In this document: positions 4,956 through 62,300 of the stretch, piece after piece
Layout of the letters: each line of letters opens with the position of its first letter
Position numbering within the stretch: the first letter of the stretch is position 1
Assembly (NCBI GenBank): GCA_964187785.1
Contig: OZ076409.1
Span: 4,900,001-4,964,000 of the forward strand
DNA: 64,000 nt
Direction of reading: 5' to 3'
From: Amphiscolops sp. MND2022
Taxonomy: Eukaryota
Position numbers and translations under genes: made by a program
The notes under the pieces: generated by a model
What the model was told of the DNA's origin: nothing
Seen by the model: only the letters and a program-made list of their open reading frames with translations
Databases searched by the model: none

Positions 4956-5645
4956 AACAAGCCGGGAACGGTCCAAGTTGGCGCTATATTTCTAAGGCTC
5001 AATCAATTTTACAGTGTCGAAAAATACCTCGAGGGATACGCATAAGACTCGAAAATCACCTTTTCCCCAACCGGAAACAGCAAAAAACCATCTTACTCAA
5101 AAAGCCAAAACCTCTCAAAAAACAAAAAGATGAGCGAAAAAGTTCCTTCCAAAAATGTATTCGGTAAATCGCCTAGTGCCGAAAATTCTAAGTAGGACCC
5201 TTTGTCGGTTTTAACATCCATTCTGTTGCGAACTATCAAAAAAAATTGAAGGGGGCCCTTTGAAGACTTTAAAAAATTTCGAAAAATTCTTACACAGCCG
5301 AAATTACATCTGAACTTTGAAAACGTTACATCCGAACTTTGAAAACGTTATATCCGAACTTTGAAAACGTTACATCCAAACTTTGAGAACGTTATATCCG
5401 AACTTTGAAAACGTTACATCCAAACTTTGAGAACGTTATATCCAAAATTTGAAAACGTTATATCCGAAATTTGAAAACGTTATATGCGAACTTTGAAAGC
5501 GTTTTATGTGAACTTTGAAAGCGTTATATCCGATCAAAATCTAAATACGTTCAACAGCTCAGCTTATAAAGCGTATAAGTTCTGTCACTTCGCCGGTCTA
5601 AAGTCAGCGCTATAGTCTGCGCTTTTTACGAACAGCGCCGACTGA
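4956..5645 (-). mobile_element. Helentron/DINE-1-like non-autonomous element (HINE) with central 22-bp tandem repeat
   Basis: subterminal inverted repeats AGT(C/T)GGCGC / GCGCCGACT, terminal GCCG-GGAA-CGG hairpin, TCCGAACTTTGAAAACGTTATA array 5305-5532. Confidence 0.6.
5305..5532. repeat. Minisatellite, 22-bp unit, about 10 copies; same unit at ~53380-53442 and ~61188-61290
   Basis: direct reading; no unique spacers. Confidence 0.9.
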
Positions 5646-10401: not shown

Positions 10402-10810
10402 CACGGGGAACAAGAATAACCCCTGAGGTATAACGTCTAAAAATGGAGTAACGTCTTGAAGCGTGTTTAATTTTTTCAGTATTTTCGCCCACCTAATATT
10501 AGGTCATAAACGATGTATGCACGCTCGAACTCACCGTCGCAAATACCAGCTCCACTATAATCGCTTCGTCATCTCCGGTACTGCTAGGACTTTGCTTCTG
10601 TTCGACCTCGCTTAACAAGATGGGAACATAAGCGGCGCCAAGGGCCCGCAGGCACTAGAGGACATGGGGGCAAATCCGAGGCACATTTTAATGCAGAAAA
10701 GGTATGTATAAAAAGGGTACTTTGTTTTTAGTTTTTAGAGGTACTTCCGGCGAAAGTGTTGTTGCCGAAAAGTCCAGCGCCATATTGTCGCCGAAACGTC
10801 TTGTTCCCGT
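10402..10810. mobile_element. TIR element carrying shared GC-rich core (10515-10685)
   Basis: ACGGGGAACAAGA ... TCTTGTTCCCGT termini; TAACGTCT repeats left, GCCGAAA repeats right. Confidence 0.55.
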
Positions 10811-14379: not shown

Positions 14380-17300
14380 GTATGTTATCCTTACTAAAAA
14401 TATGTAATGAGAGCAAACAAGATAAGAACAGAATTTGTTCAGCATGAAATAGTTCAAACAGCTTGAATATTCATAGTATCCAGCCCAGTAATGATTTTAT
14501 GTCTGTAAAGAAAATTGATCATTTCAGCAGCTCTGGAGCAAAAGGATTTTTGATTAGATCGTGAGTGGTAGTTACAATTGAGTGAACTCATTGCGTGAGT
14601 TCTTGATTCGATCATAAACACGAAAGTCAATATGGGTAGCATAGTCATACAAATACGGCCCAGTAAACACTTTAGATGCCATTTTGACTGTAAGAGGTTC
14701 AATTTGATAACACGCAGGCAGTATATTATAGCTTTTCAACTGCTGTTCACACTGTAATTTAGAATCAAAGGCCCAACGGAGGCAGGATTTTTGAAATTTG
14801 TCCATTTCGTTCATCATCGTTGCATCATGATGCCAAGCAGGAATTCCATAGAATAGATTGGATAACACCGAAGAAGAGTATAAATTCAGCTTCGTTTTAG
14901 AGGGATTAACAAAAAGAATCCAATATCTAAGAGATAAAAAGGCTTTTCGAGCTTCATTGAGCTGAATTCCTACACGATTAGACCAATTTAAACCGCTGGC
15001 TATAAAAATTCCGAGGACTTTGTGATGTCTTACCTTTTCCAACTTTTACAACGACTCAGATGCGTCGGCGGGAGAACAACTGTTTTGCCAGCAAATAGTA
15101 AAGATTATTTTTGCTGGAATCAGCTGTCATACCATTTGAGACATTCCAGTTTGATAGCCTTTCGAAATCATTATGGAAACTAAGGCATTGAAAATTAAGA
15201 GGGTTGAAAAGAAGCTTCAAAACATCAGCAAATCGCCATGGTGAGCAGTCTAACAAAAAAGAATATGAGCAAATAGTTTATGAACAAAATGAGGAAAATA
15301 GGGCCTTCAGGAGCTCCACTCACGAAGTTAACTGAATCAAAGACATGGTTATCAATTTTACCATTCTGAATCCGATCTTTCAGGCAGCTTGAAAGTAGAT
15401 CAATGAATATTTCATCCCCGCCAAACTTACGGATCTTACTGAAAAGAAGTGTGTGAGGAACTTTATCAAATGTTTTTTCATTATCGAGATACACAGTATA
15501 GGTTACCAAGGTCTCCGTTCTATGTGCACATTCTAGGTAGTCTATTAACTATAAAACAGACAGTTATCTTGACTGAGAGCCCAATGTCTTGGGTGTATCT
15601 CCATCCAAACGTAACTATAAATGTGCAATGTGCCTGTAGACCAGTTTTTCAAACAATATCGAGCATTTTTTGGGAGACTGGAAGGACTGTGATTAACAAT
15701 GCATGAGGTTTTCAGCCCCATTCTCGTGTCATAGCACTTTTCCAAGTATTAGAGTAAATTCTCGTAAGAATTGTCGAGCAAAAAAACAGGATAAAGGAGG
15801 GTTGCAAAACATCAGGACAGAGTTTCAATAACTTAGGGGGGAGAAACTCTTAGGTAATTGTCGTTTTTTTTTTTCATATCGAGTCGTATCTCACGAAATA
15901 TTGAGGGATTAATGAATAGAAAAAAATCATCAAGTTTGACTAAACCAATTGATTCAAAAATTATTGCTGGAATTTCTGCATGATTGAAATTGCTAGAGAA
16001 GTAAATTTTAAAGGCGTTTGCTATTTGAGGTACGGTCTTCAAGCAGTCGTGATTGTAACTCATCACCATAAGGTATGCATTTTTCTTGAGGCTGTTCAAG
16101 AGATGAAACAGTCGGGCAAAGTATTCGTGGAAGCTCCAGCAACGAAAAACATTCGATCCAATTCCGCTAAATTACTAAACTCCACTTGTCGTTTTTCGAC
16201 AGATTCAATGTTAGTTTTACTAGGAAGGATTTTTAACAGCTTTTCTTTTCACTGTTTTCAGCTTGTTGAGCGTATGCATCGTATTGGAAGTGTGGTAAAA
16301 CGGGTTGGCTAAGCGTTTTTTTCTCTTTTTCCTGAATGAAGTTTCAATACTATAGCAAACGTAATTGTAGAAATCAACCACAATTACTCTGCTTAGATAA
16401 AACTCGTATGGAAAGTGAATCCACGTTTTTGCGAATTATTTCAACAACTGACGACTCGTGAAGGAGACTACATACGTGAAGAGTTGGGTAGGACAGTATT
16501 CTCGAAGTTCAAAATTTTTGGATAGTGTTCACTAATATCATTTGTACAAATGATCGCGAAGGATAGAGGTATAGTGTGTAGGTCACATAGGATAATATCA
16601 AGGTTGTTAGCCCCACAATGTGTGCTTTCAGTCAGGATTAGCGGAGACAATCCGTACTCTGAAAAAAATTAGGAAACTGTTGTTCTCGGTTTCTGTAGCT
16701 CTGCATTAGATTCCAATCAGTTAACGGAACGTTGAAATCTCCTAAGACAGAAACAGAGTAAGAGTAATCAGCGGAAAGAAATTTGTTCGAAAAGAACGAA
16801 AGATTGAGTCGATTAATCGTTCCATGTCATCAAAAGAAACTTTGTAAGGAGTAGGGTACGGTAGATAACCCAAAATGATCAAAATAGCTGAATCACCAGA
16901 AAGCTAAATAACAGCAGCAGCTGCGAAATCAAAATCATCTGATTTAGTTTCTTCTGGGTGTATATCACACGTTAACATGCTGAGAATTGCAACTCCTTCA
17001 CGAAAACCATTTTGTCCATCACTTCTTGCAATAGTTTTGAACATGCCAAAAAGAGAACAGCTCATGTTATCAGTCCCCCATATTTCGGTTTTTAGTGAAA
17101 CAACCAAGTTAGACATAAAAATTACAAAATCCAACAAGTTGCCTTGCTTTGAGATGGTATCAAGACCACCATGTGTTGAATGAAAAATGTTTAGGACTGA
17201 TTAATTAAGATGTTTGGTTTTCCTCAGTAGTAATAGATATTGTTCGAATTGGCAGCGATGGTCTCAAAGGCATCTCTATCTTTGATTACAACTCCATAAC

Positions 17301-17584: not shown

Positions 17585-18498
17585 GTGATCAGGGGCTTGA
17601 AACTTATCGTACCTTGGCGATGGAAATTTAAGTGATGATAACAGAACCGTTTTGAAAGATCTCAAACAAATTGTTGAAGCTAAAAAACGCTGGGACTCAA
17701 AATTGAACCCACAAAATGCGATTTTTTCCTTGGTGACATCATTGAAAAACGACGATCGACAATTTTAACATCTTTCCATAAACTTTGCCCCGGGATCAAA
17801 ACACCAAAGAAAAATGAACTTATCCTCCTTGGTTCACCGCTCGGTCCGAAATCACACGTAGACTTTAGTAAAAGAAAGTTTTTGAACTGGAAAAAGTTAA
17901 TAGAATTGTTGAAAAACTAGATGCGCACTATGGTTTGTTTTGGTCGAAAAATTTTCTTCAGTGTGTCAAAGCTGTTGTACTTCCTGAGAACCAGTACTTG
18001 TTTTAATCTTCCAGCTCTCTTGGTAAAATATGACAAAACCGTACGCGACGGGCTTTCCAAAGTGTGTAACGTGAATGCGACGTTATTTCGAGTACTCAGC
18101 TGGCTCTGCCTGCTGAGATGGGTGGTCTTTGGGTTTCTTCCGAATCACTTTAGCACGTTCTGCCTTTCTGGCCTCAGCTTTTGGTGCGACTGACTTTCTC
18201 ACTACGTTTTCCTCGGAAACCTTCGAAGATGTTTCGTTTACAAAAGCGCTGGGGAATTGGTTGAGTTTGACGAATGGACAGGAAAGTCCTCTCGATTTCT
18301 TGAATGCATGACAAACGTTCGAAAGTTTTTACGCTCATCACGGCAAGTTCGGTTCTCACTGGCTGAACGTTGTTCCCTGCACGAACCTGAAACTTGATGC
18401 TTCGGATCAGCAGATTCGGATTTCAATTGGTTGCTTCTCGGAGCCAACATCTGTGCTGCGCATAAGTGCCACTGTGGTAAAAGAAGTGAACGGGACGG
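17585..18498 (+). mobile_element. CRE-type element, 5' part (continues at 23856-24261 and 38854-39000)
   Basis: WYLGDG-like RT motif ~17608; sequence resumes exactly across both insertions when compared with the copy at 9480-10190. Confidence 0.85.
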
Positions 18499-21400
18499 TG
18501 TGATAACCTGGCAAAGCAAACGTAAAATGGAATTTTAATTTCACGTATGAATCAATATCAGCTCAACCTGAAAAGATACAGTTTACAACCATCAGTTTTA
18601 ATGTTAGTTGAATCAGTCAATAATACATGTAGTCACCACACTCTCCCTGCCTTTGGTTTCTGAGTCTGCCACTTCTCCGTAGCGGCGGAGATGACGCTTC
18701 TTCTAGAGACTGTCTGGCTGGGGATACGTTCAAACCAACATGCGGATGACTTTCTACGGTCTTGACCGGGCTCGAGGCTCTTTTACACCAAAGTATTGAA
18801 GGGCTCAGGTTCTGGTCCCTTCGATATGAATGTTGTGTGGTGATCGTGTAGATTCGGTTTTTATCAAGGTACGAAACCACTGCGTGTTGTGGCGATAATA
18901 GGCGCAAGATTCGTGCAAGCTGTACTAATGAATCGTCTTCAGACTTCTTTGTAAAATTCTTGACGAATACTGCTGAACCCTGGGACTTCCATTCGGGTGT
19001 AAAACTGGAACATGTTGGCGTTACGTCGCTTTTGTCAAAATCTATATAGTTCTGGTCCAGTGATGAGCATCTTCTGAATCCGAAAAGGTTTTTGTGAGGA
19101 CTTTCGAAGCCGATTGCTTTCGACGACAAACATCGAATATTGCACAAAGCTTGCGGAATCTTTTCGTCCCAGAGCTCAACTGGTTTGTGAAGTTGCTTCA
19201 GTCGAAGTTTCACTGTATTCCAGATTATTCCGTTCAGCCTCTCGTTTTGGGCGTTACAAGCTGGATTGTACGGAATGGTTCGCGTTTTGCATACATTCCA
19301 ACAATCCAGGAAGGCTTTGAGCTTTCAAACACACTTCCTCGATTGCTATGAATTGCCAGTGGAGGACTGAAGATCGAGAATAGTTGTGATAAATCCAAAA
19401 TGACACTTGTTGTGTTGGCTTCTTTGACGGCAAATGCGAACGGGAATCTGATGAATTCGTCTACAACTGTTAAAAAGTTGTGTTTCCCTTGGACCTACGA
19501 AGTCTGGCGACTGTCTCGCCCAAGGTCTTTGGATCTGATAAGTGGAGTGTAAGGTGGTTTGAAGAACCTGGGTTTCAGCTGTAGACAGACAGAGAGTTTC
19601 GAGATGTAGTCTTGGACCTTTTGCCTCATTCTGGTACATCGAAATTTCGTTGGATAATTTCAACAGTTCTGGCTATTCCGGGATGGCCCATTCTGTTGTG
19701 GACTTCCTTGAGTATTAAGCTTATGTCACCTGCGATATACTTCTTGTTCTTTTCTTCGTCTATGGCGTCGTAGCCGGTTTCGTCCAATTGTGAGCAAAAA
19801 GCACTGACTCGGCTTATCGCATCAGCCACTACGTTCAGTTTACCTTTGTTGCACTGTACGTCAAAATCGTATTCTGATAGTACTAATCTCCACCAATATA
19901 ACTTGCTGTTTTTAAAAGAGGACCATGACTTTGAGTCAAACATTGACGAAACTGCTTCTTGATCTGTCAGTATGGTGTAATGACTTCTTAGCCAGTACCG
20001 CCAACAATTCCGTACAGACCACACAATAGCAAATGCTTCTGTTTGAATCGCTGACCAATTAAACCCTAGATCCGATACTTTATGAGATACGAAGGCTGCT
20101 GGCTGACCATTTTGCGTTAGGGCTGCGCCAATTGCGTTGCCGGGGGCATCTGTTGTGAGCACAAAAGGCTTCGTTCTGTCTGGGATTGACGATGCCGCTT
20201 TCGATACCGCCCGTTTAATAGTATCTATGCTGTTTATGGTCTCAGTGTCCAGCGGAAGCTTTTGTCTCGTTTCGCCTTCAGCAGCGGAGCAGCTTTATTC
20301 GCACAATCATCTACCTACTTGGAGAAGTAAACACTCATACCGACGCATCGGTCGAGTTCTACCAGTGTTGTAGGAACTGGGATTTCCAGTAAGCGTTCCA
20401 TCCGCGATTCGTCTGGATGAATTTTTCCATCTGAAAACCGATGGCCAAGGAAGTTCAACTCCAGAACTTTGACTTTTGATTTTCCCTCATTGATCGTTAG
20501 ATTATACTTTTGGGCGCGCAATCGGAATTCTGCTAAAATTTTGTCGTGTTCCTATTCAGTTGCACCACCATCTACTACGTCGTTGATGTCCACGGTAAAA
20601 GTCCATCGTCAAAAGTGTTAATTGCTTTCTGAAGGTCTGGAACTGCGTTCGTTACCCTGAACGGTATATGGTATATTGCCACTATTCTCCAATTGCTTCA
20701 AACGAGGCTAGATGTTTCTCATCGTCTAATAAGCGGAGCTGGTGGTAGGCCGACTTCAGGTCAATGTAGACCACTTCCAGGAGCTCACTTTCAATAACAA
20801 TTGTTCAGTGACCGGGATAGGGTAAGCGTCTGGAAGAGTGGGCCGATTCACTGTTGTAGAATATTCAATTATCATTCGTTTTTTGTGGTTAGCTGTTTTA
20901 GACACTACTATCCGGCAATCCTTGACTCATCCGCCCTTTCACAAATTAAATCGAAAACTATGAAGTACCAAGGCTTAGCACCTCCTTCAGCTATTGCTAG
21001 CAATGCCAATTTACCCGTAGAGGGGTCCGGAGGACAGAATTACATAAATCTGGAGCCTTTCCTATCGTAACATTGCAGGAGAACGCCAGCCCGATTCGAT
21101 GCCTTTCTCCATTCCGAAGTGAGGAAAATCAAGAATTTATACGACAAGACATCAAAAAGCTTGCTGAAGCTGGTGTCATAGAGAAGTCCCAATCCCTTTG
21201 GCGGGCTCAGGTCGGAAAGCTTCGTTGCTACAAAAATAGTTTCTTTCCTCTCGTGTTCTTCAATAGAAAGATGTGCTGTCGCAGAGCCAATGATATTGAC
21301 CGGTTTGTCTCCGATCGAGCGAGTGTAATGGGTTTTGGTGTTGATGCGCAATTTCAGTTGTTTGACAACAGATTGTTCTACTACCGTGATGTCACTGAGG

Positions 21401-22429
21401 AGTCAACTAGGAAATGTCGTGACACGCCATCGACTTCAGCAAGAATGAAGCGTCCTTCCATTGTCGCGACTCGTTTCCGCGTTAGACACAGGTCTTGAAA
21501 ATGACCCTTGCGATTACATTTGCGACAGATTTTATCTCTGGCAGGACATCCACAGGACATCTTTTGCAGTGGAACGTGTGGGCCCCGCACCAGTGGCATC
21601 GACAAGAAAATTCGGAACTCTGGACATGAAGCGGTTTCGTCGGAACCTTTGTATTTTTTTATTCGCAGAAGCATCCGCCGCAACTTCGTGAGTTGACGAA
21701 CTTGTTTGTCGGGCGGCTTCTTCCACTTCCGCTGTCGTAACCGCATCGTTTAAGAAAACTTGCTTAGATTTCTGTGTTGCCGAAGCGAACGCCCGGGAAA
21801 CAGGTTGTTTAGTCGTTTCTGAGAAGAGACCCTGGCAAAAGGCGTCCGTAATGGCTTCGTCAGCGAATGTAGCCGAGAAATTGCAAAACTTTGAAACCTG
21901 GCATAACTCACTAAGAAAATCGTTCAACGATTGGTTCGGTTTCTGCTTGAGTGAATACAGTTTTATTCGATCCGACAGAACATTTTTACCCGCAGCAATT
22001 TTCTGTATACGAAATCGACGGCTCTCTTGTATTCGGTTTGTCCTGCGTCTTTCTCCTCTTGCGTAAAAGGTGGCCAAGTGACTTCGTTGTAAAATTTCAC
22101 AGCTTTAGGCCCAACACAGAGAAGGAACGGATCCAATTGATCGGCAGTGTTAGGCTTGGTAACTCGAAAGTATCGTTCGGATTGACTTAGCCAAAGGTTG
22201 TAGGCGTCGATATCTTCTCCAGTAAAAAAGGGACAAAGCAAGGAAATTTTGGTGGCCATTGCAATAGTTCAGCACACTGTCCTGTTTAACTAAGCAACTC
22301 TGGGGAATTCCGTCCCTTCTCGAATCACTAGCAGTGAGATGCTAAACCTGATTGTTGGGTTAATCTGCGAGCTTTCTTTGACATGGATTGGCCCCGTTTG
22401 CCTCTCCTGCTAACTAGTTTATACAAGTC

Positions 22430-22995
22430 AGCTTAGTTGGCTCTCATGGTTAGAAAAAGAGCTCATTCAAACGCTACAAACGCTACAAAAGGATGTAGCT
22501 GTCTTATTTCTTGAGAGAATGCCAACCGACGTCACTTGGAAAGCAAGTGACTTTTAACGTTGATTACTAAAATGCCTGTTTGGCGAAACTGCAACTCAAT
22601 ACAGGTCGTCCCAATTCTCTGGCAATAGATCAGTGCAGCAATACGTTCCTGGTGTTTTCCAAAAGTTCGATCTATTGAAAAGTTGTCAATGGGCTGTTCC
22701 CGTTGGAGGGATGAGAGTTCACGCTGTTATTGAGGACGTCGTGTCAAGTCACAATGTTTGATTTCTGCTTGAGTGTTCCCGAATTCAGGAGAAAGCTCAA
22801 GTTTTTAAATTTCGTTCGCGAATTAGGGTTGAGCGATAATCCTCTGATAGCTGTGACGTAAGTTGCAACATGCCGTTGGTAGCAAGGTTGACGCTTCTGG
22901 GTTTTTACCAGATTGTCGAGTGACGAAGCTCGGATAAAGCAGACTATCGAATGGGGATGGTAAAATAATTGAGCTGATAAATTGGTTAGACGCAA
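22430..22995 (-). pseudogene. Degraded SGNH-hydrolase-like ORF upstream of gag
   Basis: manual translation across stops and one frameshift: VCFIRASSL...AIRGLS...NIVT*HDVLNNS...IAALIYCQR...QLHP. Confidence 0.5.
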
Positions 22996-23703
22996 TTCGG
23001 CAAATTGTCATTTACGTTCGTCAAATTGGGTTTCGGCAAATTGTCTTTCGGCAAATTGTCCCTAACCCTAAAGGACAGTTTGCCGAAATCCAATTTGCCG
23101 AATCCGAGGGACAGTTTGCCGAATTCGGCAAACTGGGTTTCGGCAAGTTGTCCTTTAGGGTTGGGGACAACTTGCCGAAAGACAATTTGCCGGAACCCAG
23201 TTTGCCGAACGCGAAGGACAATTTGCCGAAATTTTTTCCGCAAATTTTCCCTTTGAATTTGCCGAATTTTGTAAGCACAATTTGCCGAATACGTAGCGTT
23301 TTCAAAAAACAATGTTCTTGACTGTCGGATGTGCCCCCATTTCCTTTAGTGCCCCGCGGCCCCTAGAACCCGCTTTTGTTCTCATCTTGCTGAGCGAGGT
23401 CGAATGGGAGTAAAGACCTTGCGGGAACGGAGATCGCAAAGCGATCGTAGTGGGAGCTGGTCTTTGCGACGGTGAGGGCGAGTGTGCATACACCGTATAT
23501 GACCCCATATTAAGTAAGGAGAAGTACCTAATCTATTTTAAACGCTTCGCAGGAGCAAAAACCTGATACGGAAACTTTGCCGAAAGACAATTTGCCGGAA
23601 CCCAATTTGCCCAACGTGAAGGATAATTTGCCGAAAATTATTCGGAAAAATGTCCATGAGTCACTTTTTGACAAATTGCTTTCGGCAAAATGTCCCGTAT
23701 CCG
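22994..23703. mobile_element. Foldback-like element with TTTGCCGAA/TTCGGCAAA arrays and shared GC-rich core (23325-23500)
   Basis: many direct and inverted copies of the motif; terminus TGTCCCGTATCCG; left end unclear. Confidence 0.7.
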
Positions 23704-23855
23704 TCCATTATTCCAAAATTATGGTAACCTTGCAAAGCAAACGTAAAATTAAACTTTAATTCCACGTAGAAATTTTTATCAGCCCAATCTGAAAAATTTA
23801 CAACCATCAGTTTTAATGTTAATTGAATCAGTCAATAATACACGTGGTCACCACA

Positions 23856-24261
23856 GACGTTTTGCACGATCTTTTTTGCACCAAGAGTGCTGGTCACTTC
23901 TCACGTCATGCTTCTCTCTCAGTTCTCTCATAAAGCAAACGTTGGGATCTCTCGACTTGCCTTCAGTGCTCGAACCGCGTGGACTGTACCGAACTGATAG
24001 CAAACACCCAGACGGTGTTACAATAATTCCTTGGGAAACGGGTAAACAGCTGGTGTGGGATGTCATGGTTGTGGATGCTCTTGCAGCCACCTGTCTGAAT
24101 TAAGGCTCTTTATGCAATCTGGGAACCACCACCACCGAAGCTGAAGCGCGTAAATTTGAGAAGTATCGCGAATTAATAGAGAGTGGATACATTTTTCAAC
24201 CTGTAGCCTTGGAAGTACAGGGTTCTTTAGGCGGGAGCAGTGAAATTTTCATTAGATTCTC
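23856..24261 (+). mobile_element. CRE-type element, middle part (endonuclease)
   Basis: PSVLEPRGLYRTDSKHPDGVTIIPWETGKQLVWDVMVVDALA. Confidence 0.88.
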
Positions 24262-27200: not shown

Positions 27201-29011
27201 TCCGGCCCTTGAGTGACGAATACAAGCCACTTGTGTTTTTTTTGTACTCTCGAAGAAAGTTCAAAATTTGTTGTAAACGTCTCGTGCTTGTCTCATTGAA
27301 AGCGCAACTCAAATCTAAAGTCATTTTCTGGCTTGTGAATTGGTATCAACGGCGTGAGTGATTGTGAACTCACTACGACTCACAGAAGTGATTTCGACCA
27401 ACTTGAGACGTCCATATCTTGTGTTTGTCTTAAGGTTTCACCGAGACGAAAACTAGGAAAGTGGGACAAAACCCAGCTTTACGTGTTGGAAATCTGTGGA
27501 AAACCCCCTGGTGTGAAATCCTATTCGTGAATTTTTTGCTGTAGGTGCGAATTGCGGCCAATATCGAGTGTGCTGGGACCAGTTTTGGGAGTTGTTGCCG
27601 CACCTCATCGGAACGTTGGGACTACATTGCTCTGGACCACGAGAGTCTTTGGTTGCACGCAAAAAATCGAGTCAATTGAGATACGGTCATACGGAAAGCC
27701 TGTTCAGCATCTGCAACTCATTCAATAGTCTGAAGCCTGATTGGTGCTTATTGCAGTGCACCTGGCTATACGTAGTGGGGCCGCGTGGCTACTTTTGAGC
27801 CCGATCTTACGTTTCCAGTGTTGGCAGGAGCCACTTGAGTAATTTTCAAAAATAAATTGAAAGTTTCAAATTCGTTAAAAAACACTCTAGCTTGTGAATG
27901 GAGGTATTTATCCGCTTCTTGAGGTCATTTTTCCAACTTGTGTGACTGAACAAACAGACTGAGGAGTTTTCTACCCAGTACACGCCTGATAGGACTGACT
28001 TTGACTGTGCCCAGACCCGCATTTCGGCCAAAATCCCGAAAAACCGTCAGAAAAACGAATCATAATATCTTAGTACTCTCACTATACGGAAGGCAGAGAC
28101 CAAAAGCCTTTCATTTCTAACCGTACGTACCTATTAGATCTTCCAGGGTTCAAACAAGGCAAATCCTATATTTCACAAAAATAGCCGGCAGGGGTCATAT
28201 ATTTTGACTCAACTGGTACTTTGAAATTTGACTCTGATAAAGTCTCAATCGGGGGCTTTACGTGCCTGCGACGCACTTTTTACTAAATTTTTCAACGCGA
28301 ACATCTCTAGGCGTTACTTTGTGAGCCCAAACAGGGTTTCGAAAATACAAAAACCACCCTGAGGGATCCAACTTAACCAAAATCACGAGTTTTTGAGATG
28401 AGTCACCTTCTAGCGCCCAAAATTCGACCACGTTCCCCAAGTGTGAAATCCTTTTGACCATTCTGGTTCCCTAATTTGGTGTTATTGTGCAGTATCAAGC
28501 AGTGTGAGGACCAAATATCACGTCAGCTTTGCAGAGAATACTTTTGGGTAATTGCAACACACCCAAATTCATTGAAGTTTAGAGGTCAACAGACAGCTCG
28601 ACTGTTTGTTTCGTGTACACTATCCCCCACTACCGCAGCATTGTGCTCGAGCGCACAATTTTCCAGTCCGACGCATATCGTGAAATAAGGTGGGGCAATT
28701 TTCAGCACGCACGCTGTGACCACTAGAACTCATCTTGACTGTGCCCCTGAGACTAATTTTGGGTACAAAAACAGTTCCAGTCAAGCAGTTTCAACCTATC
28801 TGAAGCTGGAATGAATTTGTGGAAGGTCCTAGACAGCTTCCGTTCCTTTTTCAAGGGGGAAAAGGGTGTCAGTGCAGCACCACCAATAGCTGAACCCGTC
28901 TTGAAAGCAGAAAGTGAATCTCGGTAAATGAACATGGCCGATCAACCAAATTAGAGGACTGGCCATTGGAGAACGAACAGTTTCAATGTTTTACCCGACT
29001 TTCTAGACTCA

Positions 29012-30340
29012 ATGTCAGGTAAATCGCACGTTACCGAGCCAGAGGGGATGAAAAGGGCTTCCAGTCCTAGTTCAGTATCGTCGTCGAGAATGTCCTCTCT
29101 CTTTGAAACCAGTTTTCACACTTATGAGGCAGTGAACCAAAAGCTAGAGATCCTAGAGCAACAGATGGATGAGTTATCAATCTCGTTCACACAAAGCGAT
29201 CTACGTAGAGAGAACATCCTAGCTCGAGCGCTAGTGCAATTGCAGTCGATAAGTGCAGCAGTACACTTCGAAAGTGCCACTATCAATTTTCAAAACGACT
29301 CAGAAGTAGAACCAATGACACCGCCTACAAAAGATATAGACCCAATGTTTTTGGACACTACAACCATGAGCATCACTGATACGTTACCTCTTTATCAGAC
29401 CAATGATTATGGATTGCTCGAGGGCAATCCCTGCTCAAGTGATACGAAAGATGAACTGATAACAACCTCATCAATGCTGGAGGAGAGGGTACCCACAACT
29501 CCTAATTCTTGCTCTGCAACAAATTGCGGAACGAGGAATCTATCTGGCAATGCTGTGTTGGAAGCTGAAAAAACACCAACACCAAACATCCTTCAAAACC
29601 AATCGACAACACCAATGGATTCGGTTTGCGACTCTGACTTCCCTGGAACAAAGTCCTCATTATCAATTTCGTGGTTGCTGCCAGATCTGTTGAAAGAATC
29701 TATCGAGCCAGGTTCTGCCAAACATGGTCTACAGGATTTTCTTTTGGCAAACCCACCAATCTTTATCCCCTGGTTGCCTAGTTGTTCAACTAAGACTCGA
29801 CCAGCTGGACACAGACGTGGTCGACCACCGCGCACTTCCGGTAAACACACATGGCAAGCAGTGCTGTTATACCTTCATGATGGAGGTCGCCGCGGTCGTC
29901 CACCACGCCCAGTTTGTCTATTAACATGGTCACAACGACCAAAGGAACATAGGCGTGGCCGTCCTCCGAACAACTCTCCCAGTCGTGAGACAGACTCAGT
30001 CTCCACAATTTTTTTATCAGATTTCCGGATGATTCATACTTGTTGCATGTCCTGCTGCTATCGGATAATAATGTCAATCCACAGACCAAACCACACCACT
30101 TCTTTTCAAGGGGTGAGGAGGTGTCGTCAACGCTTAAACTATCCTTCTGCATTTTTGTGTCGGGCATTCAATTTTGTCTATTCATCACTTTTCTCATGTG
30201 GACGAAGGTGCCAAACGATTAAGGCCCGGGGGTCGATTAAGGCCCCAGTGGAGGGTAATAATACCCCCGTCAAGCTCAATTGCAACGGACAACGCCCTGA
30301 GTACTTCACTACGTTTGGTAATGGACACTCGGCAGTGTGA
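29012..30340 (+). CDS. 442-aa ORF of unknown function inside long-LTR element; N-terminal coiled-coil-like segment, three RRGRPP motifs
   Basis: long uninterrupted ATG ORF in otherwise closed sequence; no known domain recognised. Confidence 0.5.
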   Translation: MSGKSHVTEPEGMKRASSPSSVSSSRMSSLFETSFHTYEAVNQKLEILEQQMDELSISFTQSDLRRENILARALVQLQSISAAVHFESATINFQNDSEVEPMTPPTKDIDPMFLDTTTMSITDTLPLYQTNDYGLLEGNPCSSDTKDELITTSSMLEERVPTTPNSCSATNCGTRNLSGNAVLEAEKTPTPNILQNQSTTPMDSVCDSDFPGTKSSLSISWLLPDLLKESIEPGSAKHGLQDFLLANPPIFIPWLPSCSTKTRPAGHRRGRPPRTSGKHTWQAVLLYLHDGGRRGRPPRPVCLLTWSQRPKEHRRGRPPNNSPSRETDSVSTIFLSDFRMIHTCCMSCCYRIIMSIHRPNHTTSFQGVRRCRQRLNYPSAFLCRAFNFVYSSLFSCGRRCQTIKARGSIKAPVEGNNTPVKLNCNGQRPEYFTTFGNGHSAV

Positions 30341-31979: not shown

Positions 31980-33452
31980 TGTGATTGCTCTTTTCGCTGT
32001 TTCTACCGATTTGACAGGTACTTCGGCAACAAAGAGCAAGAACGAGCAAAAACAAGGGTACGGCCATGACAGATGGTATCTCGCCATGACAGAAGCCGGA
32101 GAGCTTAAAAAACTTCTGAAAACAGACTCTTTTTGTGGTGCTTACCCCGGTTTTCATTGATTTCAGCATAATGCTACCCTTTGTAGCAGAAACCGGTAAA
32201 ATGAGTCTTTTTCCTAAATTGTACTTGTTTCGTGCTTGGAGCCCCTGCGCCCCAGCTTGTAGCTCTGTGGTTTGCCAGTCCCATGTGTGCTTTGATGTAC
32301 TTTTGCTGGATTTAACCGTTTGAACTAGCTCGAACGCTAGTTGGGGCAATTTTAGATGTTATTCCCCATTTTAGATTTTTTTCCGATATCAGATGGAAAA
32401 TGGAAATTTACACTGTTTATCTTTGGCATTGCTTTTAAATGCTGTCTAAACGGTGGTCCGAGGCGAAGGTCCGAGACGGATGCCCGTTATTGTCAGCAGT
32501 TAGAGACTGGGACCAGGCCAGAGAGCATCCTATAAGACGGTTCCTCACCCTGGGACTGGCTCCCTTGGAGGCAAAAGCTAGGGCCGTGGAGATCCAAGTC
32601 CCGGATCATGTTATGAATGTAATATATATATGTATATATATAAAACGAGGGCTACAACGGAATTGTGAAGAAAGCAGTTCAGTGCCTGCTACACTCCACA
32701 AACCGCCCACTAACTGACTGGGAAAGTGTCCTACCATCAGCGCTCTCGTCGATTCGGACACTTATCAATACCGTCACCAAGGAGAGCCCCCATGATCGCT
32801 TCTTCTGTTTCAAACGCGGCGAGCCGCTGATCCGCCCCTCCAGTAGCGCACCTTGGCTCAGAGCAGACGCTCCCGCGTACATCCGGAAATTTGTGAGGGC
32901 GAAAGACCAAGCTCCCGTTCTGCCTGTACAGATATCCGAAGTCATCTCCCCTCACCTTGCACGAGTCTCCTTTGGCGATGGGCGAGCTGACACTGTTTCT
33001 ACAAGTGACCTCTCTCGACGACCTCCGGATAATGACAATGAAGGAACGACCTCACAACCAGGAGGTCAATACAAAGACAAGGAGGCCGATGTAGACATCA
33101 GAACATCGGGTCCTGACATCAGAACCGAATGTGAACCACCTAAATCTGTGGGACCAATAAAGGAGTCTCAATTCAGCCCGGACTCTCCCGCTCCCACCTT
33201 GCGACGCTCGGCTAGGAACAGGAAACCTCCTACATACCTAGGCGACTTTGTGTCGGCTATGAACTAGAGACTTTCGAAGCGGGAAGGAGTGTTATGAATG
33301 TAATATATGTAGTTATTAATACTGTTATATAATGTCGTTGTGTTGTTTATGTTAACCTAATTGTTGTATGTATACTTCAGATGAATGTTTATCGAATAGA
33401 AACTTCCTGCAAGTAGTGTTTTCCCCCTCGACAATTCTATTCGATACTCCTC

Positions 33453-34019
33453 ATGCGTTATCACCTCTTCAAGACCTCGCACACTCGTAACCTGGTTATT
33501 ACTGATTCACAAGGAAGGAACCTGACGTTCCCTAACTTCAATATTCTCGTCCTACCAGGTGCCCGAGTTGGAGACGTGAGACCTTTCTTACCTGCAAAAT
33601 GTCGAATTGATCTGATTGTACTCTTCATCGGAGGCAACGACTTACCAACCGACAGCACTCGAACTGTTGCCAGGAACATCTCTGACCTTGCCGTAGCAGC
33701 ATCTGAAGTTGCACTCAGAGTCTTCGTTATCGCGGTTCCTCCTCGGCTAGACATTCCTGACCAGGCCAAGGCCTTGAATCGTTTCCTAGAAGACAACAAC
33801 GATCGCCGTTGGCTTTACAGATGCATATCTCGAAGCATCTGCAGCGCCGAAAAACACACTACCCGAGACGACATCCACCTAGAGCCTAGGGCCATTAGTG
33901 GAAATCCCTCCATCTTGAAAAACCAAGTACTTCGGAAAGCCGTCTGCCCCCAGATCGACAAACAAGGTCACCCCCGAACATACGAGTGCCCTCGAGGTCA
34001 TTGCGCCTGCCCGCGCTAA
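33453..34019 (+). CDS. SGNH/GDSL hydrolase-like ORF (188 aa) between 5' LTR and gag
   Basis: block I LVITDSQG, block II LPGA, block III FIGGNDL, block V DDIHL; intact ATG-to-stop. Confidence 0.85.
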   Translation: MRYHLFKTSHTRNLVITDSQGRNLTFPNFNILVLPGARVGDVRPFLPAKCRIDLIVLFIGGNDLPTDSTRTVARNISDLAVAASEVALRVFVIAVPPRLDIPDQAKALNRFLEDNNDRRWLYRCISRSICSAEKHTTRDDIHLEPRAISGNPSILKNQVLRKAVCPQIDKQGHPRTYECPRGHCACPR

Positions 34020-34181
34020 GTCACGTAAACTGGACGTGTCTTCAGGTGGGCGACTTTTCTGTTTAAGCTACTACGGTACTTCTTCAAGTTCCTCGTAGCT
34101 ATCGACCATTCCGCTACTACGGTACTTCCTTAAGTTCCTCGTAGGAATTGTCTATGCGCTGTATTCCCTCTTCCGACGCCC

Positions 34182-34980
34182 ATGAAGTTCAAACCACCCG
34201 ACTTGCCATCAAATCCTTCTCCCGAGAAATGGAAATGGTGGAAGAAATGTTTCGAGGACGGCTTACGCATCAATGGCACAATCGAAGATGCTGACAAATT
34301 AGTTTTTCTTCGTACATTTGTCGGCTCCGACTATTTCACTCTCCTCGAAAGCTCTGCAACGTTTGCAGACGCCCTGAGAACATTGGACAGACAGTTTCTG
34401 AAGCCCACGAGAGTGCTCTTTGCCCGTCATCAAATGCTCAGTGCCAGTCAAAAGGACGACGAATCTGTCGTACAGTTTTCAGGAAGGATAAAACGTCTTG
34501 TTGAAGACTGCGAATGCACCAGCTCGACCGTCTAAGCACATAAAGACTATCTAGTACGAGACTTTTTAATATCAGGGCTCAGGTCTAACGACATTCGGGC
34601 AAAACTATTGGAACAAGAAGGCTCCAAGGCCGACATTGATAGCTGCATTACGTTTGCTTGTGCTATCGAACTATCCAGTGACTTTTCCAAATCTTTCAGA
34701 AGTACCGAATCTTCAACTGTAGCAGCAACCAAGCCGTTCTCCCAGACAACTCGACGGCAACCTGATCGGCCCGGCAACTCCGCTGCCTAACAGGTTTCGA
34801 ACAAGCCTCGTCCACGCTGTCAGTTCTGCGGTCTAAAACAGCATCCACGCTCAGGGTTCCCAGCCAAAAAGGACACTTGTCACAAATGCTCGAAAGCAGG
34901 ACACTGGGCTTCGGTATGTAGATCGACCGCTGCTGTCTTACAACAGTCATCTGATGATGAACCCGAGACTGCCGCCGTTT
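34182..34980 (+). pseudogene. gag (premature stop 34533-34535, later frameshift)
   Basis: WKWWKKCFEDGL, ARHQMLSASQKDDESVVQF..RIKRLVEDC, CHKCSKAGHWASVC knuckle ~34877-34920. Confidence 0.88.
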
Positions 34981-37795
34981 TGTGCAGTACTGGCATATCC
35001 CCTGCCACTCTGAATGTCAGCCTCAAATTTGCCGGAAGCAATGAACAAGTTCAAGCAAGGATTGATACCGGGTCCACGGGCTCCTTTATCAGCGCCTCAA
35101 CAGCTGCCAAATATGGCCTGAATGTCAGCGCGAAGCGCAAGGTCACTGCCTTGGCAAATGGCGATTCTCTGATTACGTCAGGCACCGCTAAAGCTAAAAT
35201 TGAGGTAAACCAAAAGACCTATCAAGTTCTCTTCACTGTCGCAAAATACCTCGTTGCGGATGTTATTCTCGGGCTTGACGTTCTCCGACAACATCACTCT
35301 GTGAGACTGGAATTAGGCGGTGATCGACCAGAGACGGTTATATCTGCCGGGCTCAAGGAATTAGAGTTCCTGGCGATGAAAATCGCCCCTCCGACCATAC
35401 TTTCCAAAACAGTTTATAGTGCCAAATTGATTGCTACAAAATCGCGTCGTCACAAACCGCAAGACGTCGCCTTCATGGATTCAGAAGTTAATCGAATGCT
35501 CGCTGAAGGCATAATCCAAGTTTCCACGTCTCTCTGGCGGGCTCAAGCCTTTGTCGTTAGGGACGGACCCAAGCCACGGATGGTGATTGACTATTCTCAG
35601 ACAATTAATCGTCATACGTCCAAAGACGCCTTCCCCTTTCCAAACATGCAAGACCTGTTGGACCAAGCAGCCGAGAACACTACTTTTTCGAAAATCGATT
35701 TGAAGTCTGCGTATCATCAAATTCCCCTCCATCGCAAGGACATGTCATTCACCGCGTTTGAAGTGAACGGACGACTTTTCGAGTTCACAAGACTTCCCTT
35801 TGGCGTCACGAACGCTGTAGCGGCATTTCAACGAGAAATGACAGCCTTTGTGCGCCGGCACAACCTGAAGCGAACGCACCCATTTCTTGACGATGTGATC
35901 ATCGGAGGCAGATCCGAGGAGGAACACCAAGAGAATCTGAAGAACTTCCTGAAAGCGGCCGAGATTGAGCGTCTGACACTGAACAAAGCTAAGTGCGTTT
36001 TTGACTGTAAGACAGTACTAATGCTCGGTCACATCGTGGGAGCTGGGTCTAAACCCCCCGATCCGAGCCGAATCAAGACACTGATGGATTTCCCGATCCC
36101 CGAAAACTCGTCACAGGTGGAACGCCTTCTTGAGTTCTTTGCGTACAACGCAAAGTGGATTGCAGACTACTCAAATAAGGTTGCTCCCCTGCTCGCAGCA
36201 CAGAAACAACTGGCCTTTCCGCTCAATCAAGCTTCTCGGCTGGCTATCGCAACCCTCAAGAAAGAAGTTGCCTCTGCCGTACTCTGGCTGCCCCGGGCAA
36301 ACGAGCCTCTCGTTCTCCAAACCGATGCATCCGGAACCGGTATCGGAGCGACACTCACTCAAAACGACAAACCTGTCGGTTTCTTCTCGAGAACTCTTAA
36401 TCATAGCGAAATGGCGTACTCGGTGGTTGAAAGGGAAGCTATGGCTATCTTGGAAGGCTTCCGCCGTTTCTCAGACCTGTTAGGGACGTCATGGGTTCTA
36501 GTTCGCACCGATCTAAAGGCCCTCTCTTTCATATTTGGACCCAACTCTTCCAGAGTAAAGAATGACAAACTGATTCGCTGGCGTCTGGAACATTCGGAAT
36601 ACAACTTCGAGATAAGCTACCAGAGAGGTTGTCAGAACGTGTCAGCTGACGCCCTGTCTCGATTAGCGTCCCTACAGCCCAGCTGTAAAACCCTACACGA
36701 GACACTTGCGCATCCAGGAGTGACCCGACTGTACGAATACATTCAAAGACACAAAGTCCCAATATCTTTAGATGAGGCGAAAAGGTTACCGAAAACTGCA
36801 AAACGTGCGCTCTATGGAAACCGCGCTTTTTGCGACCAGCCGGCAGCGATCTTATTCGATCCTCCAAACCTTGGGAGCGACTATCAATCGACATTGTTGG
36901 CCCCAAACCAATGACTAGAAAGAAAAACTAATACCTTCTCACAGTGGTGGATGAGTTTAGTAGGTTTCCTTTCGCCTTCCCTCTCCGGAACATCACGTCT
37001 AGTAGCGTCATCAAGTGTCTTTCAACACTTTTTGCCATCTTCGGAACACCTGGGTTCATTCACTCTGACCAGGGCACACAGTTCGTCTCATCGGAATTCC
37101 AAAACTTCTGCCGCCAAAATGGAGTTGCGACCTCCAAAACTACGCCCTACCACCCTCAGGGCAATGGCCAAAACGAGGGCTACAACGGAATTGTGAAGAA
37201 AGCAGTTCAGTGCCTGCTACACTCCACAAACCGGCCACTAACTGACTGGGAAAGTGTCCTACCATCAGCGCTCTCGTCGATTCGGACACTTATCAATACC
37301 GTCACCAAGGAGAGCCCCCATGATCGCTTCTTCTGTTTCAAACGCGGCGAGCCGCTGATCCGTCCCTCCAGTAGCGCACCTTGGCTCAGAGCAGACGCTC
37401 CCGCGTACATCCGGAAATTTGTGAGGGCGAAAGACCAAGCTCCCGTTCTGCCTGTACAGATATCCGAAGTCATCTCCCCTCACCTTGCACGAGTCTCCTT
37501 TGGCGATGGGCGAGCTGACACTGTTTCTACAAGTGACCTCTCTCGACGACCTCCGGATAATGACAATGAAGGAACGACCTCACAACCAGGAGGTCAATAC
37601 AAAGACAAGGAGGCCGATGTAGACATCAGAACATCGGGTCCTGACATCAGAACCGAATGTGAACCACCTAAATCTGTGGGACCAATAAAGGAGTCTCAAT
37701 TCAGCCCGGACTCTCCCGCTCCCACCTTGCGACGCTCGGCTAGGAACAGGAAACCTCCTACATACCTAGGCGACTTTGTGTCGGCTATGAACTAG
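34980..37795 (+). pseudogene. pol: protease-RT-RNase H-integrase, disrupted near 36780-36930
   Basis: IDTGS, SKIDLKSAYHQI, LPFGVTNA, FLDDVII, LQTDASGTGIGA, HETLAHPG, VDEFSRFPFA, IHSDQGTQF. Confidence 0.95.
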
Positions 37796-37975
37796 AGACT
37801 TTCGAAGCGGGAAGGAGTGTTATGAATGTAATATATGTAGTTATTAATACTGTTATATAATGTCGTTGTGTTATTTATGTTAACCTAATTGTTGTATGTA
37901 TACTTCAGATGAATGCTTATCGAATAGAAACTTCCTGCAAGTAGTGTTTTCCCCCACGACAGATCATGTTCACGG

Positions 37976-59300: not shown

Positions 59301-62300
59301 TCGTCCGCTTTCGCAAATGCTCGAAAAAGTTTCTGACTGAAGCAGGGACTCGAACGCGCGACCGCTGGGTTCCCGTAAACCGATTAACGTCTGTACTAAA
59401 AAGTGGTACATACAGGGTGACGTCTGTGGTCTGACGAAAAAAAAAGAACAAGACGGGAACGTCTAAAGTCGGCGCTATATCTAAGGCTCAAAAAGCGCAA
59501 AATACTTTCTTTTGAAAAAAACTTGAAATTTTTGATTTTTTTCTTTCAGAAAATGTCGCATAGTGCCGAAAAATGTAAAAGGGGGGGCCCTTTGGGCTTT
59601 ATTAACATATATTCTGTTGCAAAATATCCAAAAACTTGAAAGGGGGACTCTTTTGAGACATTAAAAAATTTTCGAAAAAAGTCGTACAATGTCGAAAAAA
59701 CGGAAAGGGGGGACCCTTTAGTCTCGTCCGGTTTTGTAGGTTACGTTAAAATAGTAAAAAATGAAAGGGGGGACCCTTTTGCACTAATTTCCGCTGACCA
59801 GACTTGGCCTTATGGTAGTAGTTTTAGTAGTTTCGATTGTAAGAAAAGTGGCCCAATCAGAGTGAGATTGTAGTCTGACGAAAAAAAAACTAGCCACTGT
59901 AATTGTCGGGCACTTTTCACTAGAAAAGCGCCAATTAAAAACTAGCCACTAAAATGATTTATAGTCAAGAAAAATCCTCGTTCATTTTTGTTTCGTTCGT
60001 TGCAGACGACATGCCCTGGAACCAGGAAGACCTGTCCGTGTACGTGGCCAAACTGCAGGAGACGGTGTGCAAAGAGGCCTCGGAGCAGGGGCTGGAGTGT
60101 CCCAGTGTGGAGGGAGTGCAGGCCATTGTGGAGGCAGCCAAGGAAGGCGAGTTCGACTCCGATGACACCGAGTGTCCCATCAAAGACATGTGCTCCGGTG
60201 CCAACCCTCTGCAAACTCTGAGCACCCAGATCTCCGACGTCTTGTTAGTACAAACTACATGTTCACACTTTGTTCATGTTCGGAGGAGGGTCGGTCCGAT
60301 CAAATTTCAGTATTTTTTAACTCTAACTGCAACTGAAACTCATCGCTGATACTGGTGGGGAATTGAAATTTCCGCGCTTACAGTAATTGGGTGGCAATTA
60401 GCAGAACTATGAAAGAAAGATGATTTTGCATGTATGGATGATTTTTGATAACGTCAAGTAAATAAACAAAACGCCCGCTAAACACCGGGATTTTTTCCGC
60501 GAAAAATGTAACGCATCAACACGGGTTCGAACCCACGACCTCGTGTCTGCCAGGCAGACGTACTACCAACTGCGCCATGGCGACTAGATTTTACTAAGTA
60601 CGACATGCTGGTCAAGTGAAGGGATCAAGCAGCCGTTACAACTAGAATAGTCAAGTAATTAAAATAGTCAAGTAACTCTAGTGTTACTGGTCAAGTGAGG
60701 TGAAACTGGGAGGAAATTTGGTTGAACAAACTGAACAAAAATTTCGTCGCATTTGAGACTGTCTTGAAGAAAAAAAAGAAAAAAACGAGTGATTGTAATA
60801 GTCGGGTTCTTCTATTCTAAAAGACTACAAAGGTTGATCTCTATGATTGATGAAGGTTGCATCGTTGCTGCAGGTGTCTGATGTTTGAGCGCCTGATGAC
60901 TCGTCTGGGGGAAGAGCAGTCGTGGGAGGACATGGAGGCCTCTGTGCGCCAGTGGAGTGACGTCACCAGAGACCCCGCTGTGAAGCAGGTCATGGTCGAC
61001 TCCATCGAGAGGGCCAAACTCATGTACGGGGATGTGGATGTCGCCACAAAAGTTGTAAGTGCCACTGCGGCTGCTACTGCTCAAGCAGCTAACATCAGTA
61101 GATTTTGTTTCAAAACCAGCCAGGAACGGCCCAAGTCGGCGCCATATCTCAGGCTCAACGAATTATGTGAAATTTTAGGGAAAAATAAAAACGTTATATC
61201 CGAACTTTGAAAACGTTATATCTAACTTTGAAAACGTTACATCCGAACTTTAACTTGAAAACGTTACATCCGAACTTTGAAATGTTAAATTCGAACTGAA
61301 ATCCGGGTTGACCTCTCGGGTAAAGGTTTAACAAATGAACAAAAAAGTCGACCATTCAGAGTGAACTGAAAAAAAACTGCCCACTGTAATAGTCGGACTT
61401 TTTCCTTTAGTGCATAATATTTTAAAGGTCTCCCAATTCTGAAGAAAAGAAAAAGCAAAAGGCAACTTTTTCGGTGAAATGAAGAATTTTATAAAGGTCT
61501 CCCAATTCTTAGAAGAAAAGAGAAATTGCAACATGTAACGTTTGGTTGGAAGTACGGTTGAAGCCGAACGGTAATAATGCAGAATAAATGTATAGCAGAA
61601 CCGAACCGAATTCTTAATTGTGATGGTCGCTCCGCTCCGTTCGACAGTGAGCTTTGAATGATGAAACTATTATGTAACTTTGCACCGGTCGGGAACCGTT
61701 CAATTGGATGACCGCTCAGTTAGACGACTGTGCAATTGATCAAATTTGCACGCATTCCATTTTCAGTTCGCCCACAACTTGTAATGATTACGTAATCGGA
61801 GTCTGTCAGCGAAGATGAATCAACCAATAATATTTTAGAAACAGCTGATAGTCTTCCAATTGATCAATCGGTTAGTTGAGCGGTCGTCCAATTGAGCTAG
61901 ACTCGCACCGGTCAGAGTATATGAAAGTCAAGGCAGTAAATTGCTTATTTCGTCGCCCAATCAGATTTGAGATCGGCTTCATATTTGTTCTAGTTGTTAT
62001 GTGATAAACCTGAAATCATGACTAACTAAAAATGATTCAGTTGGCGTCCATTTAAAGCCCAAAAATGTTAAGTGTTTGAATTTAGCTAAATAGCTGTTTT
62101 TGAGAGAATTCTGAAAAATCTCACGGTGCCGAAAATCTTTTGGTTTCCTTCGAGTGGAATTGTAAAAAAAAGATCAGAGGAGAGCCCAAGCTAAAAATGT
62201 TTTAAAAGTCGGCGCTATATCTAAGGCTCAAAAAGCGCAGTTTTTAAAATATGCGTAGGACGTTTTCATGAAAAATTCCTGTTTTCGAACCTCCGCCTCC

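Follow-up and report, generated by a model that had tools for sequence, protein, structure and literature searches.

In a stretch of 64,000 nucleotides of DNA from Amphiscolops sp. MND2022 (GenBank assembly GCA_964187785.1, contig OZ076409.1, positions 4,900,001 to 4,964,000)—the window analysed here—two Gypsy retrotransposons carry genes for SGNH proteins of two different families in the same slot, immediately upstream of gag. One is the intact open reading frame (ORF) of a plus-strand element (element A); the other is a broken gene, ORF0, in a decayed minus-strand element (element B; Table 1). We think it probable that this single slot received two captures from a shared pool of transposon esterases, by the route set out below. 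Throughout, family A denotes SGNH proteins related to the 188-aa ORF of element A and family B denotes SGNH-fold proteins related to ORF0 of element B.

Table 1. Positions of the features of elements A and B within the window.
Feature	Position	Strand	Remarks
LTR, element A	33290..33433	+	144 bp, followed by self-complementary PBS
SGNH ORF, element A, intact, 188 aa	33453..34019	+	ATG 19 nt past LTR
Element B, decayed Ty3/Gypsy	23855-18499	-	LTRs, TSD, gag, pol
TSD of element B, 5 bp	left copy 23856..23860, right copy 18494-18498	-	one mismatch; read from the sequence
5' LTR, element B	23722..23855	-	starts TG; 3' end abuts insert; 83.6% identical to 18501-18640
3' LTR, element B	18499..18640	-	TG...CA, 142 bp
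738-bp insert in element B	22984..23721	.	palindromic MITE-like repeat with nested dispersed repeat, between LTR and PBS
PBS position, element B	22967..22983	-	not tRNA-like; complementary to own LTR
Putative self-primer, LTR segment of element B	23775..23789	-	complementary to sequence at PBS position
ORF0 of element B, first half	22660..22947	-	block I Ser 22926, block II Gly 22842, block III His-x3-Asn 22743/22731
ORF0 of element B, second half, past frameshift	22328..22660	-	strands 4-5, block V His 22495, basic tail
gag, element B (broken)	21381..22259	-	ATG 22259, 68 nt past ORF0 stop; zinc-knuckle remnants
pol, element B (broken)	18641..21380	-	RT, RNase H, integrase in Gypsy order

Element B shows the features by which Ty3/Gypsy elements are recognised: TG...CA long terminal repeats (LTRs), a target site duplication (TSD) and the order reverse transcriptase (RT), RNase H and integrase. 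Its gag gave weak Retrotrans_gag and zf-CCHC matches in Pfam and tblastn matches to element A and to a related element, L018; its pol, matched in Pfam by RT_RNaseH (E 1e-20) and Integrase_H2C2, recovered in pieces by tblastn and with a protease recognised by eye only, extends to the 3' LTR. ORF0 precedes gag, so this is not the ORF3 placement of Vesta-type elements. The insert that now parts the LTR from the primer-binding site (PBS) has inverted arms (22996-23106 and 23120-23230) and contains a segment (23325-23515) found also at 10491, 31629 and 38281. The LTR runs into the ORF0 leader in three of nine close relatives by tblastn and in two more by eye, and the relatives' proteins run from LTR to leader without the insert; because LTR and ORF0 are joined in these other copies, we regard the insert as secondary and the adjacency of LTR and ORF0 as a property of the family.

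'Mag-like' is at most a tentative label for the window's Gypsy elements. In their LTR ends, element B loosely resembles the CsRN1 motif and element A that of Mag C (PMC3601003). Elsewhere, the window holds a decayed LINE RT fragment (14686-15491, minus strand) with no ORF0 match nearby, a 22-bp tandem repeat (5260-5567) with a shorter array far off (61164-61297), and a stop-free frame of 461 codons (28955-30340) with no Pfam match and short Arg-Gly-Arg-Pro-Pro repeats.

ORF0 of element B spans 22947-22328 on the minus strand, with its natural stop at 22330-22328; the intact gene would encode about 200 aa. The start codon has been lost, and the gene is damaged further by one frameshift near 22660, a short duplication near 22486 and five internal stops (22746, 22674, 22534, 22465 and 22435). 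Read with X at the stops, its halves are 51% and 52% identical (E 1e-28 and 7e-22) to P0012, an intact relative of 201 aa. A profile built from eight LINE-associated relatives, run as a six-frame search over the whole window, matched the same halves at E 6e-19 and 4e-8, the next best match standing at 1.8. Element B's copy is dead; the family is a real gene.

The initial annotation had recognised this gene from five short peptides in a translation through stops and had assigned it to 22430..22995. The minus strand contains all five in the order given, far beyond chance according to the profile search, and the gene does lie between the 5' LTR (23855-23722) and gag (ATG 22259), the 738-bp insert having gone unmentioned. 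The order survives, but not as a single readthrough: the first three peptides share one frame and the last two lie past the frameshift. As for the SGNH blocks read from them, the copy retains Ser, Gly, His-x3-Asn and His, but the peptide IAALIYCQR is the fourth strand and no catalytic block. The location was likewise right and its ends were not: the start column is 22947 and the end 22328, and 22430 adjoins an internal stop. A start of ORF0 inside the LTR, as in P0004 and P0006, was considered and dropped; since most of 150 relatives begin at strand 1, without an N-terminal coiled coil, we read these two N-terminal extensions as gene-calling run-ons.

Family B is large—283 clusters at 50% identity in a search with P0004, 94 of them at E<=1e-10—and our alignment holds 111 mostly full-length relatives out of 152 fetched. 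Pfam returned no SGNH match either to the ORF0 halves, at E up to 10, or to P0004 or P0005; for the 111 relatives, neither Lipase_GDSL nor Lipase_GDSL_2 occurs among the 25 of 45 families listed, the others matching at most one family B member each. PDB sequence searches with the alignments of the two families gave no match in one case and four unrelated weak ones in the other. The ESM Atlas held no usable match for P0012; a reading as PIN domain, drawn from ESM Atlas clusters at 0.83-0.87, fell below our threshold for leads and was contradicted by the fold searches. BFVD gave no match at E<=0.001, its best rows being phage SGNH domains, and viral contigs contained no relative of family A, of family B or of element A's RT.

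Structure prediction was more telling. An AlphaFold2 model of P0012, computed from the family B alignment, has a mean pLDDT of 95.6 and five strands (residues 3-6, 29-31, 63-65, 101-106 and 125-128). Its best Foldseek match is a GDSL lipase (E 3.6e-4, TM 0.50), and in an exhaustive structure search (Z 10.8, rmsd 4.0, 155 residues aligned) GDSL/SGNH entries dominate the list, the ZfL2-1 esterase (4c1b) being absent from the best 50 fold matches listed. A five-stranded alpha/beta/alpha SGNH fold for family B, predicted on a relative 51-52% identical to ORF0, is thereby supported, as is the SGNH-like fold first proposed for this gene.

Mapped on this model, block I Ser occupies the turn after strand 1 (96 of 107 family B rows), block II Gly follows strand 2 (99/109), and two adjacent Asn residues follow strand 3 in block III (89 and 105 of 111), a block that is non-canonical in that Asp replaces the usual Gly (103/110). 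Block V His (95/107) lies in the loop before helix 153-165. The triad Asp of D-x-x-H occurs in none of 107 rows; this residue is described as only 'often present' in SGNH hydrolases (PMC4021074), and its lack weakens the claim to a classical triad and leaves the fold untouched. Four residues before the first block III Asn stands a His (85/111) which—by spacing, not superposition—resembles the H191/N195 pair of ZfL2-1, which is called transposon-specific and for which S228 is the partner Ser (PMC3905857). The LTR-linked relatives are themselves partly decayed: in P0005 the block V His is missing, and P0011 ends early. An intact sister protein, 54-60% identical, has none of the motifs missing.

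An alternative reading leaves the origin of family B as it is but would make the protein a non-catalytic or weakly catalytic SGNH fold which, like the OSK domain of Oskar, binds RNA or else protects the RNA against silencing by the host. The absent triad Asp would fit such a job, as would a median pI of 10.5 with a tail that is 43% Lys/Arg (84 rows), the OSK domain among the P0012 fold matches (Z 8.0), and extra conserved His, Asp, Tyr and Arg residues outside the SGNH blocks. Against this, Ser, Gly, Asn and His are kept together in 62 of 103 rows, or 77 when the next Asn is counted, down to identities of about 30%, which argues for a retained active site, and Oskar is itself described as non-catalytic (PMC3905857). 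We hold this alternative to be unlikely.

A scan of metagenomes with one motif yielded 17 family B loci, two pairs of which are near-copies. In 10 of the 17, family B forms the separate first ORF of a LINE: homologues of LINE ORF1 or of APE-RT follow ORF0 in L001, L005, L007, L009, L010, L012, L013 and L014, and L006 and L008, counted here as LINEs, have downstream of ORF0 an ORF with a weak PHD match only. Three (L001, L007 and L009) look like complete three-ORF LINEs, with an SGNH ORF0, a Cys-rich/PHD-like ORF1 and an APE-RT ORF2. ORF1 starts 96-260 nt behind ORF0 in the six loci with a confirmed ATG, of seven checked. Short tandem repeats occupy the ORF0-ORF1 gap in L001 and L012 and precede both ORF0 and ORF1 in L009.

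Two further loci place a divergent family B member behind a GIY-YIG ORF: in L015 (2-4208) a PIF1 helicase is fused to a C-terminal GIY-YIG domain, and L016 (2-1766) retains the GIY-YIG end. These arrangements point to a Helitron-like element with an unusual nuclease; a Penelope-like reading was set aside in view of the PIF1 helicase in L015. The remaining five loci have no assignable context. Neither Gypsy gag nor Gypsy pol was found at the 17 loci, which does not show that a Gypsy context is rare, because identity to P0012 does not exceed 39% at these loci, some of which are short, and all come from one motif.

In a quick tree of 79 rows (arbitrary root, 64 rows without assigned context), the LTR-linked proteins form one clade with P0012, P0008 and P0009 (SH-aLRT 100), with P0012 as sister of the LTR-linked clade. 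That clade sits among LINE-associated rows on branches of 83-91, below 95, and LINE-associated rows cover more of the family B tree than it does. This suggests a transfer of family B from LINE to Gypsy.

The occupant of the slot in element A is another matter. Family A counts 44 relatives, with the frame open in many copies, and its ORF is joined to the LTR in three of four other copies tested. Lipase_GDSL_2 matches 14 of 21 aligned relatives weakly (E up to 0.1), the matches of the window's own 188-aa protein all falling below the curated cut-off. A model of the 188-aa protein matched an SGNH structure (Z 12.8, rmsd 3.1, 151 residues aligned), its pLDDT being 55 overall and poor past residue 116. 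Family A has the classical motifs (D-S, G-N-D and D-x-x-H), and all 21 rows have Phe at the position of the transposon-specific His. Its C-terminus has three conserved Cys and a His, a possible metal site, where family B has its basic tail. In element A the gag ATG lies 162 nt past the stop of the SGNH ORF. As a whole, element A (32609-37961) has three LTRs in tandem and has undergone a large deletion; an LTR stub, an integrase tail, an LTR, a full unit and an LTR follow one another between the copies of a 5-bp duplication, and the duplicated part is 99.4% identical.

That ORF0 has no evident DNA similarity to 33453-34019, as the initial annotation maintained, is borne out: neither blastn nor tblastn gave a match, and the local alignment score of 22 was reached by 90 of 300 shuffles. 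Direct protein comparison of the ORF0 halves with the 188-aa protein gave nothing. The wider comparison with that protein, which had been proposed as a check, disclosed no family link: hhalign aligned families A and B with a probability of 0.5%, and cross-profile matches at E<0.01 numbered 0 of 21 and 1 of 111 (E 0.0023). As far as sequence comparison reaches, these results show different SGNH families in the same pre-gag slot.

RT-RNase H-integrase trees were built from 17 rows anchored on L019 and from 12 rows anchored on an outgroup; apart from the clade described here they contained 4 and 3 Gypsy-like and 8 and 4 pararetrovirus-like rows (by our own reading), from 68 loci fetched. Elements A and B join three elements from a motif scan, L018-L020, in one clade in both trees (100/100 and 100/99). 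These three are eukaryote-type Gypsy elements that, like the microsatellites found with them, lie on contigs from bacterial genome assemblies and probably stem from host contamination. Their gag starts 26-28 nt past the LTR, so none of the three has a slot, and they group together (98/99 and 99/97) with A and B outside. The monophyly check that the initial annotation had envisaged thus came out in part: A and B share a clade, but only 18% and 6% of bootstrap trees make them sisters, a grouping that the AU test does not reject (p 0.32 and 0.135), the row of element B being decayed and 47% filled in the 12-row tree. Their pol sequences are 35% identical over 569 columns.

The clade has a further feature in common. 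The LTRs of A and B are 142-144 bp each, and neither element has a PBS of the tRNA type. The PBS of element A (33434-33446) pairs with its own LTR over 12 bp Watson-Crick (0 of 1000 shuffles). That of element B pairs with the 3' LTR over 11 bp Watson-Crick (1/1000) and with 23775..23789 over 15 bp if G-U pairs are allowed (0/1000), or 9 bp Watson-Crick only (9/1000). L018-L020 have an own-LTR PBS of 14 bp (0/1000), which brings the count to five of five clade elements, with 11-14 bp and a different sequence in each; pairing of either window PBS with the other element's LTR was not significant (647-950 of 1000 shuffles). In self-priming of the Tf1 type the primer is the 5' end of the RNA, set free by cleavage. 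Complementarity of the PBS to the element's own 5' LTR is described as the hallmark of Tf1/Tj1-type self-priming (PMC4600332). The pairing is shared with Tf1/Tj1 as described there; unlike those elements, element A has no chromodomain match in its integrase in Pfam. The matches suggest Tf1-like self-priming in this Gypsy clade, which probably consists of animal elements, and we found no description of self-priming in such a clade in the literature searched.

Since L018-L020 start gag 26-28 nt past the LTR, the slot is not clade-wide, and two histories fit: either the slot was gained twice, or it is ancestral, its occupant having been swapped once and the slot lost once. Its occupants are two acquisitions under either history. 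ORF0 belongs to the family that LINEs carry as their first ORF and the 188-aa ORF does not match family B; of the alternatives that the initial annotation had left standing, a lineage-level feature or a slot filled twice, this favours the second, and the first was not shown, with three of three other members slot-less. Its further point that the arrangement is no one-off capture holds, both ORFs being joined to LTRs in other copies and belonging to different families. The presence of a different SGNH family in the neighbour's slot points to two separately acquired occupants.

A single capture at the base of the clade could produce the same picture if the ORFs of A and B had since diverged beyond recognition, LINEs had taken their copies from Gypsy and L018-L020 had lost the gene. 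A and B do branch outside the slot-less three, as an ancestral slot with one loss would have it, and their ORFs share position, similar size and a basic character. LINE ORF0s, however, readily match the ORF of element B and family A does not; block III differs in kind between the families; and the LTR-linked clade takes up less of the family tree than the LINE-associated rows do. A single capture therefore seems to us very unlikely. If instead the slot is ancestral and its occupant was exchanged later, the preferred explanation of two captures still covers the case.

Nor need a captured gene be useful: a 5' fragment of a LINE might have recombined into the Gypsy leader and been amplified without benefit. 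Every LTR-linked copy seen is decayed, relatives transpose without the slot, ORF1p of ZfL2-1 is described as dispensable in HeLa cells (PMC3905857), and rotifer ORF3s are reported to show no departure from neutrality (PMC5408684). Yet element B has a clean cassette, with a 36-nt leader, then the whole ORF, then 68 nt to gag, and no remnant of LINE ORF1; the intact sister protein has kept every motif despite its divergence; translation of gag should suffer from a long ORF ahead of it; and a second family, open in many copies, occupies the same slot. We regard a neutral passenger as distinctly unlikely.

The explanation that we prefer, two captures into one slot, can be carried through to a mechanism. 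The first cistron of the Gypsy family, between PBS and gag, is a stand-alone SGNH-fold protein of about 200 aa with a basic C-terminal tail, in the case of ORF0 probably drawn from a pool of transposon accessory esterases that includes the first ORF of LINEs and the ORF behind PIF1/GIY-YIG. Capture most likely came about by template switching between co-packaged RNAs, from LINE to Gypsy for ORF0. Because the ORFs start 36 nt (element B) and 19 nt (element A) past the LTR, where relatives start gag, ORF0 would most likely be translated first from the genomic RNA of an active element, and gag-pol then by reinitiation or leaky scanning.

By analogy with the ZfL2-1 esterase, the ORF0 protein might hydrolyse esters slowly by way of Ser and His, attach to acidic membranes through its basic surface and hold RNA with its tail, so as to tether the assembling RNA-Gag particle to membranes in a matrix-like job; we advance this membrane-tethering function tentatively, as somewhat unlikely in itself. 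A bolder version, quite unlikely in our estimate, is that this clade of animal elements twice recruited a membrane-binding SGNH esterase pre-gag, once straight from three-ORF LINEs. Translated separately and placed where matrix lies in retroviruses, it would be a matrix substitute that directs particles lacking env to membranes or vesicles and so from cell to cell, with the same Pfam-invisible family serving LINEs, Gypsy and Helitron-like elements.

That mobile elements can carry SGNH genes is already known. Esterase ORF1p has been described in CR1, L2, RTEX and Penelope elements, with ZfL2-1 as the example (Schneider et al., 2013, PMC3905857; PMC4120745; PMC13343379), and SGNH cargo also occurs in Penelope-like elements (PMC5408684, PMC6431247). 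The ZfL2-1 esterase is reported to work slowly and to attach to acidic liposomes by virtue of its surface charge (PMC3905857). Family B resembles it in SGNH fold, first-ORF position, basic character and an arginine-rich stretch; compared with ZfL2-1 as described, family B differs in having no N-terminal coiled coil and no triad Asp, in its C-terminal basic stretch, in its invisibility to Pfam and in being, in LINE loci, a separate ORF before a Cys-rich/PHD-like ORF1 rather than ORF1 itself.

The closest precedent among LTR retrotransposons is Vesta, an element from bdelloid rotifers whose ORF3 is of the GDSL/SGNH kind (Rodriguez et al., 2017, PMC5408684), and template switching between RNAs has been proposed for the rotifer ORF3s there. 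As described there, Vesta too is Gypsy-like, with LTRs and a free-standing SGNH ORF that other retroelement classes also have, and with no transmembrane segment or coiled coil. Its ORF3, however, lies in the env slot, whereas element B's ORF precedes gag; it is shared with Penelope-like elements and does not cluster with LINE esterases, whereas that of element B is shared with LINEs; and the window's Gypsy elements have two different families in one slot. Ngaro-like elements (bioRxiv 10.1101/2021.08.05.455354) and Helitron-borne texim (PMC4021074) also have SGNH accessories, but belong to other classes as described, with the ORF after the recombinase in the former and introns in the latter; the two PIF1/GIY-YIG loci, L015 and L016, resemble the texim case.

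Some plant elements have additional ORFs upstream of gag (PMC3485330). Leaving aside Repbase and GyDB entries, supplements and most subscription papers, the literature searched contained no SGNH ORF before gag, and, Repbase, GyDB and supplements aside, no three-ORF LINE with a separate esterase ORF0; the pre-gag position thus appears to be new within that literature.

Why many unrelated mobile elements acquire SGNH esterases is a standing question (PMC3905857, PMC5408684). Family B is large, with its 283 clusters, and was missed by both Pfam and the ESM Atlas; its intact natural members, among them three-ORF LINEs that look complete (L001, L007 and L009), bring tests of enzyme activity, membrane binding and ORF0 itself within reach. 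With a family present in LINEs, in Gypsy and in Helitron-like elements, genes can be seen directly to have moved between classes, and a slot that one Gypsy clade filled by two separate captures would indicate that function, not sequence, was selected.
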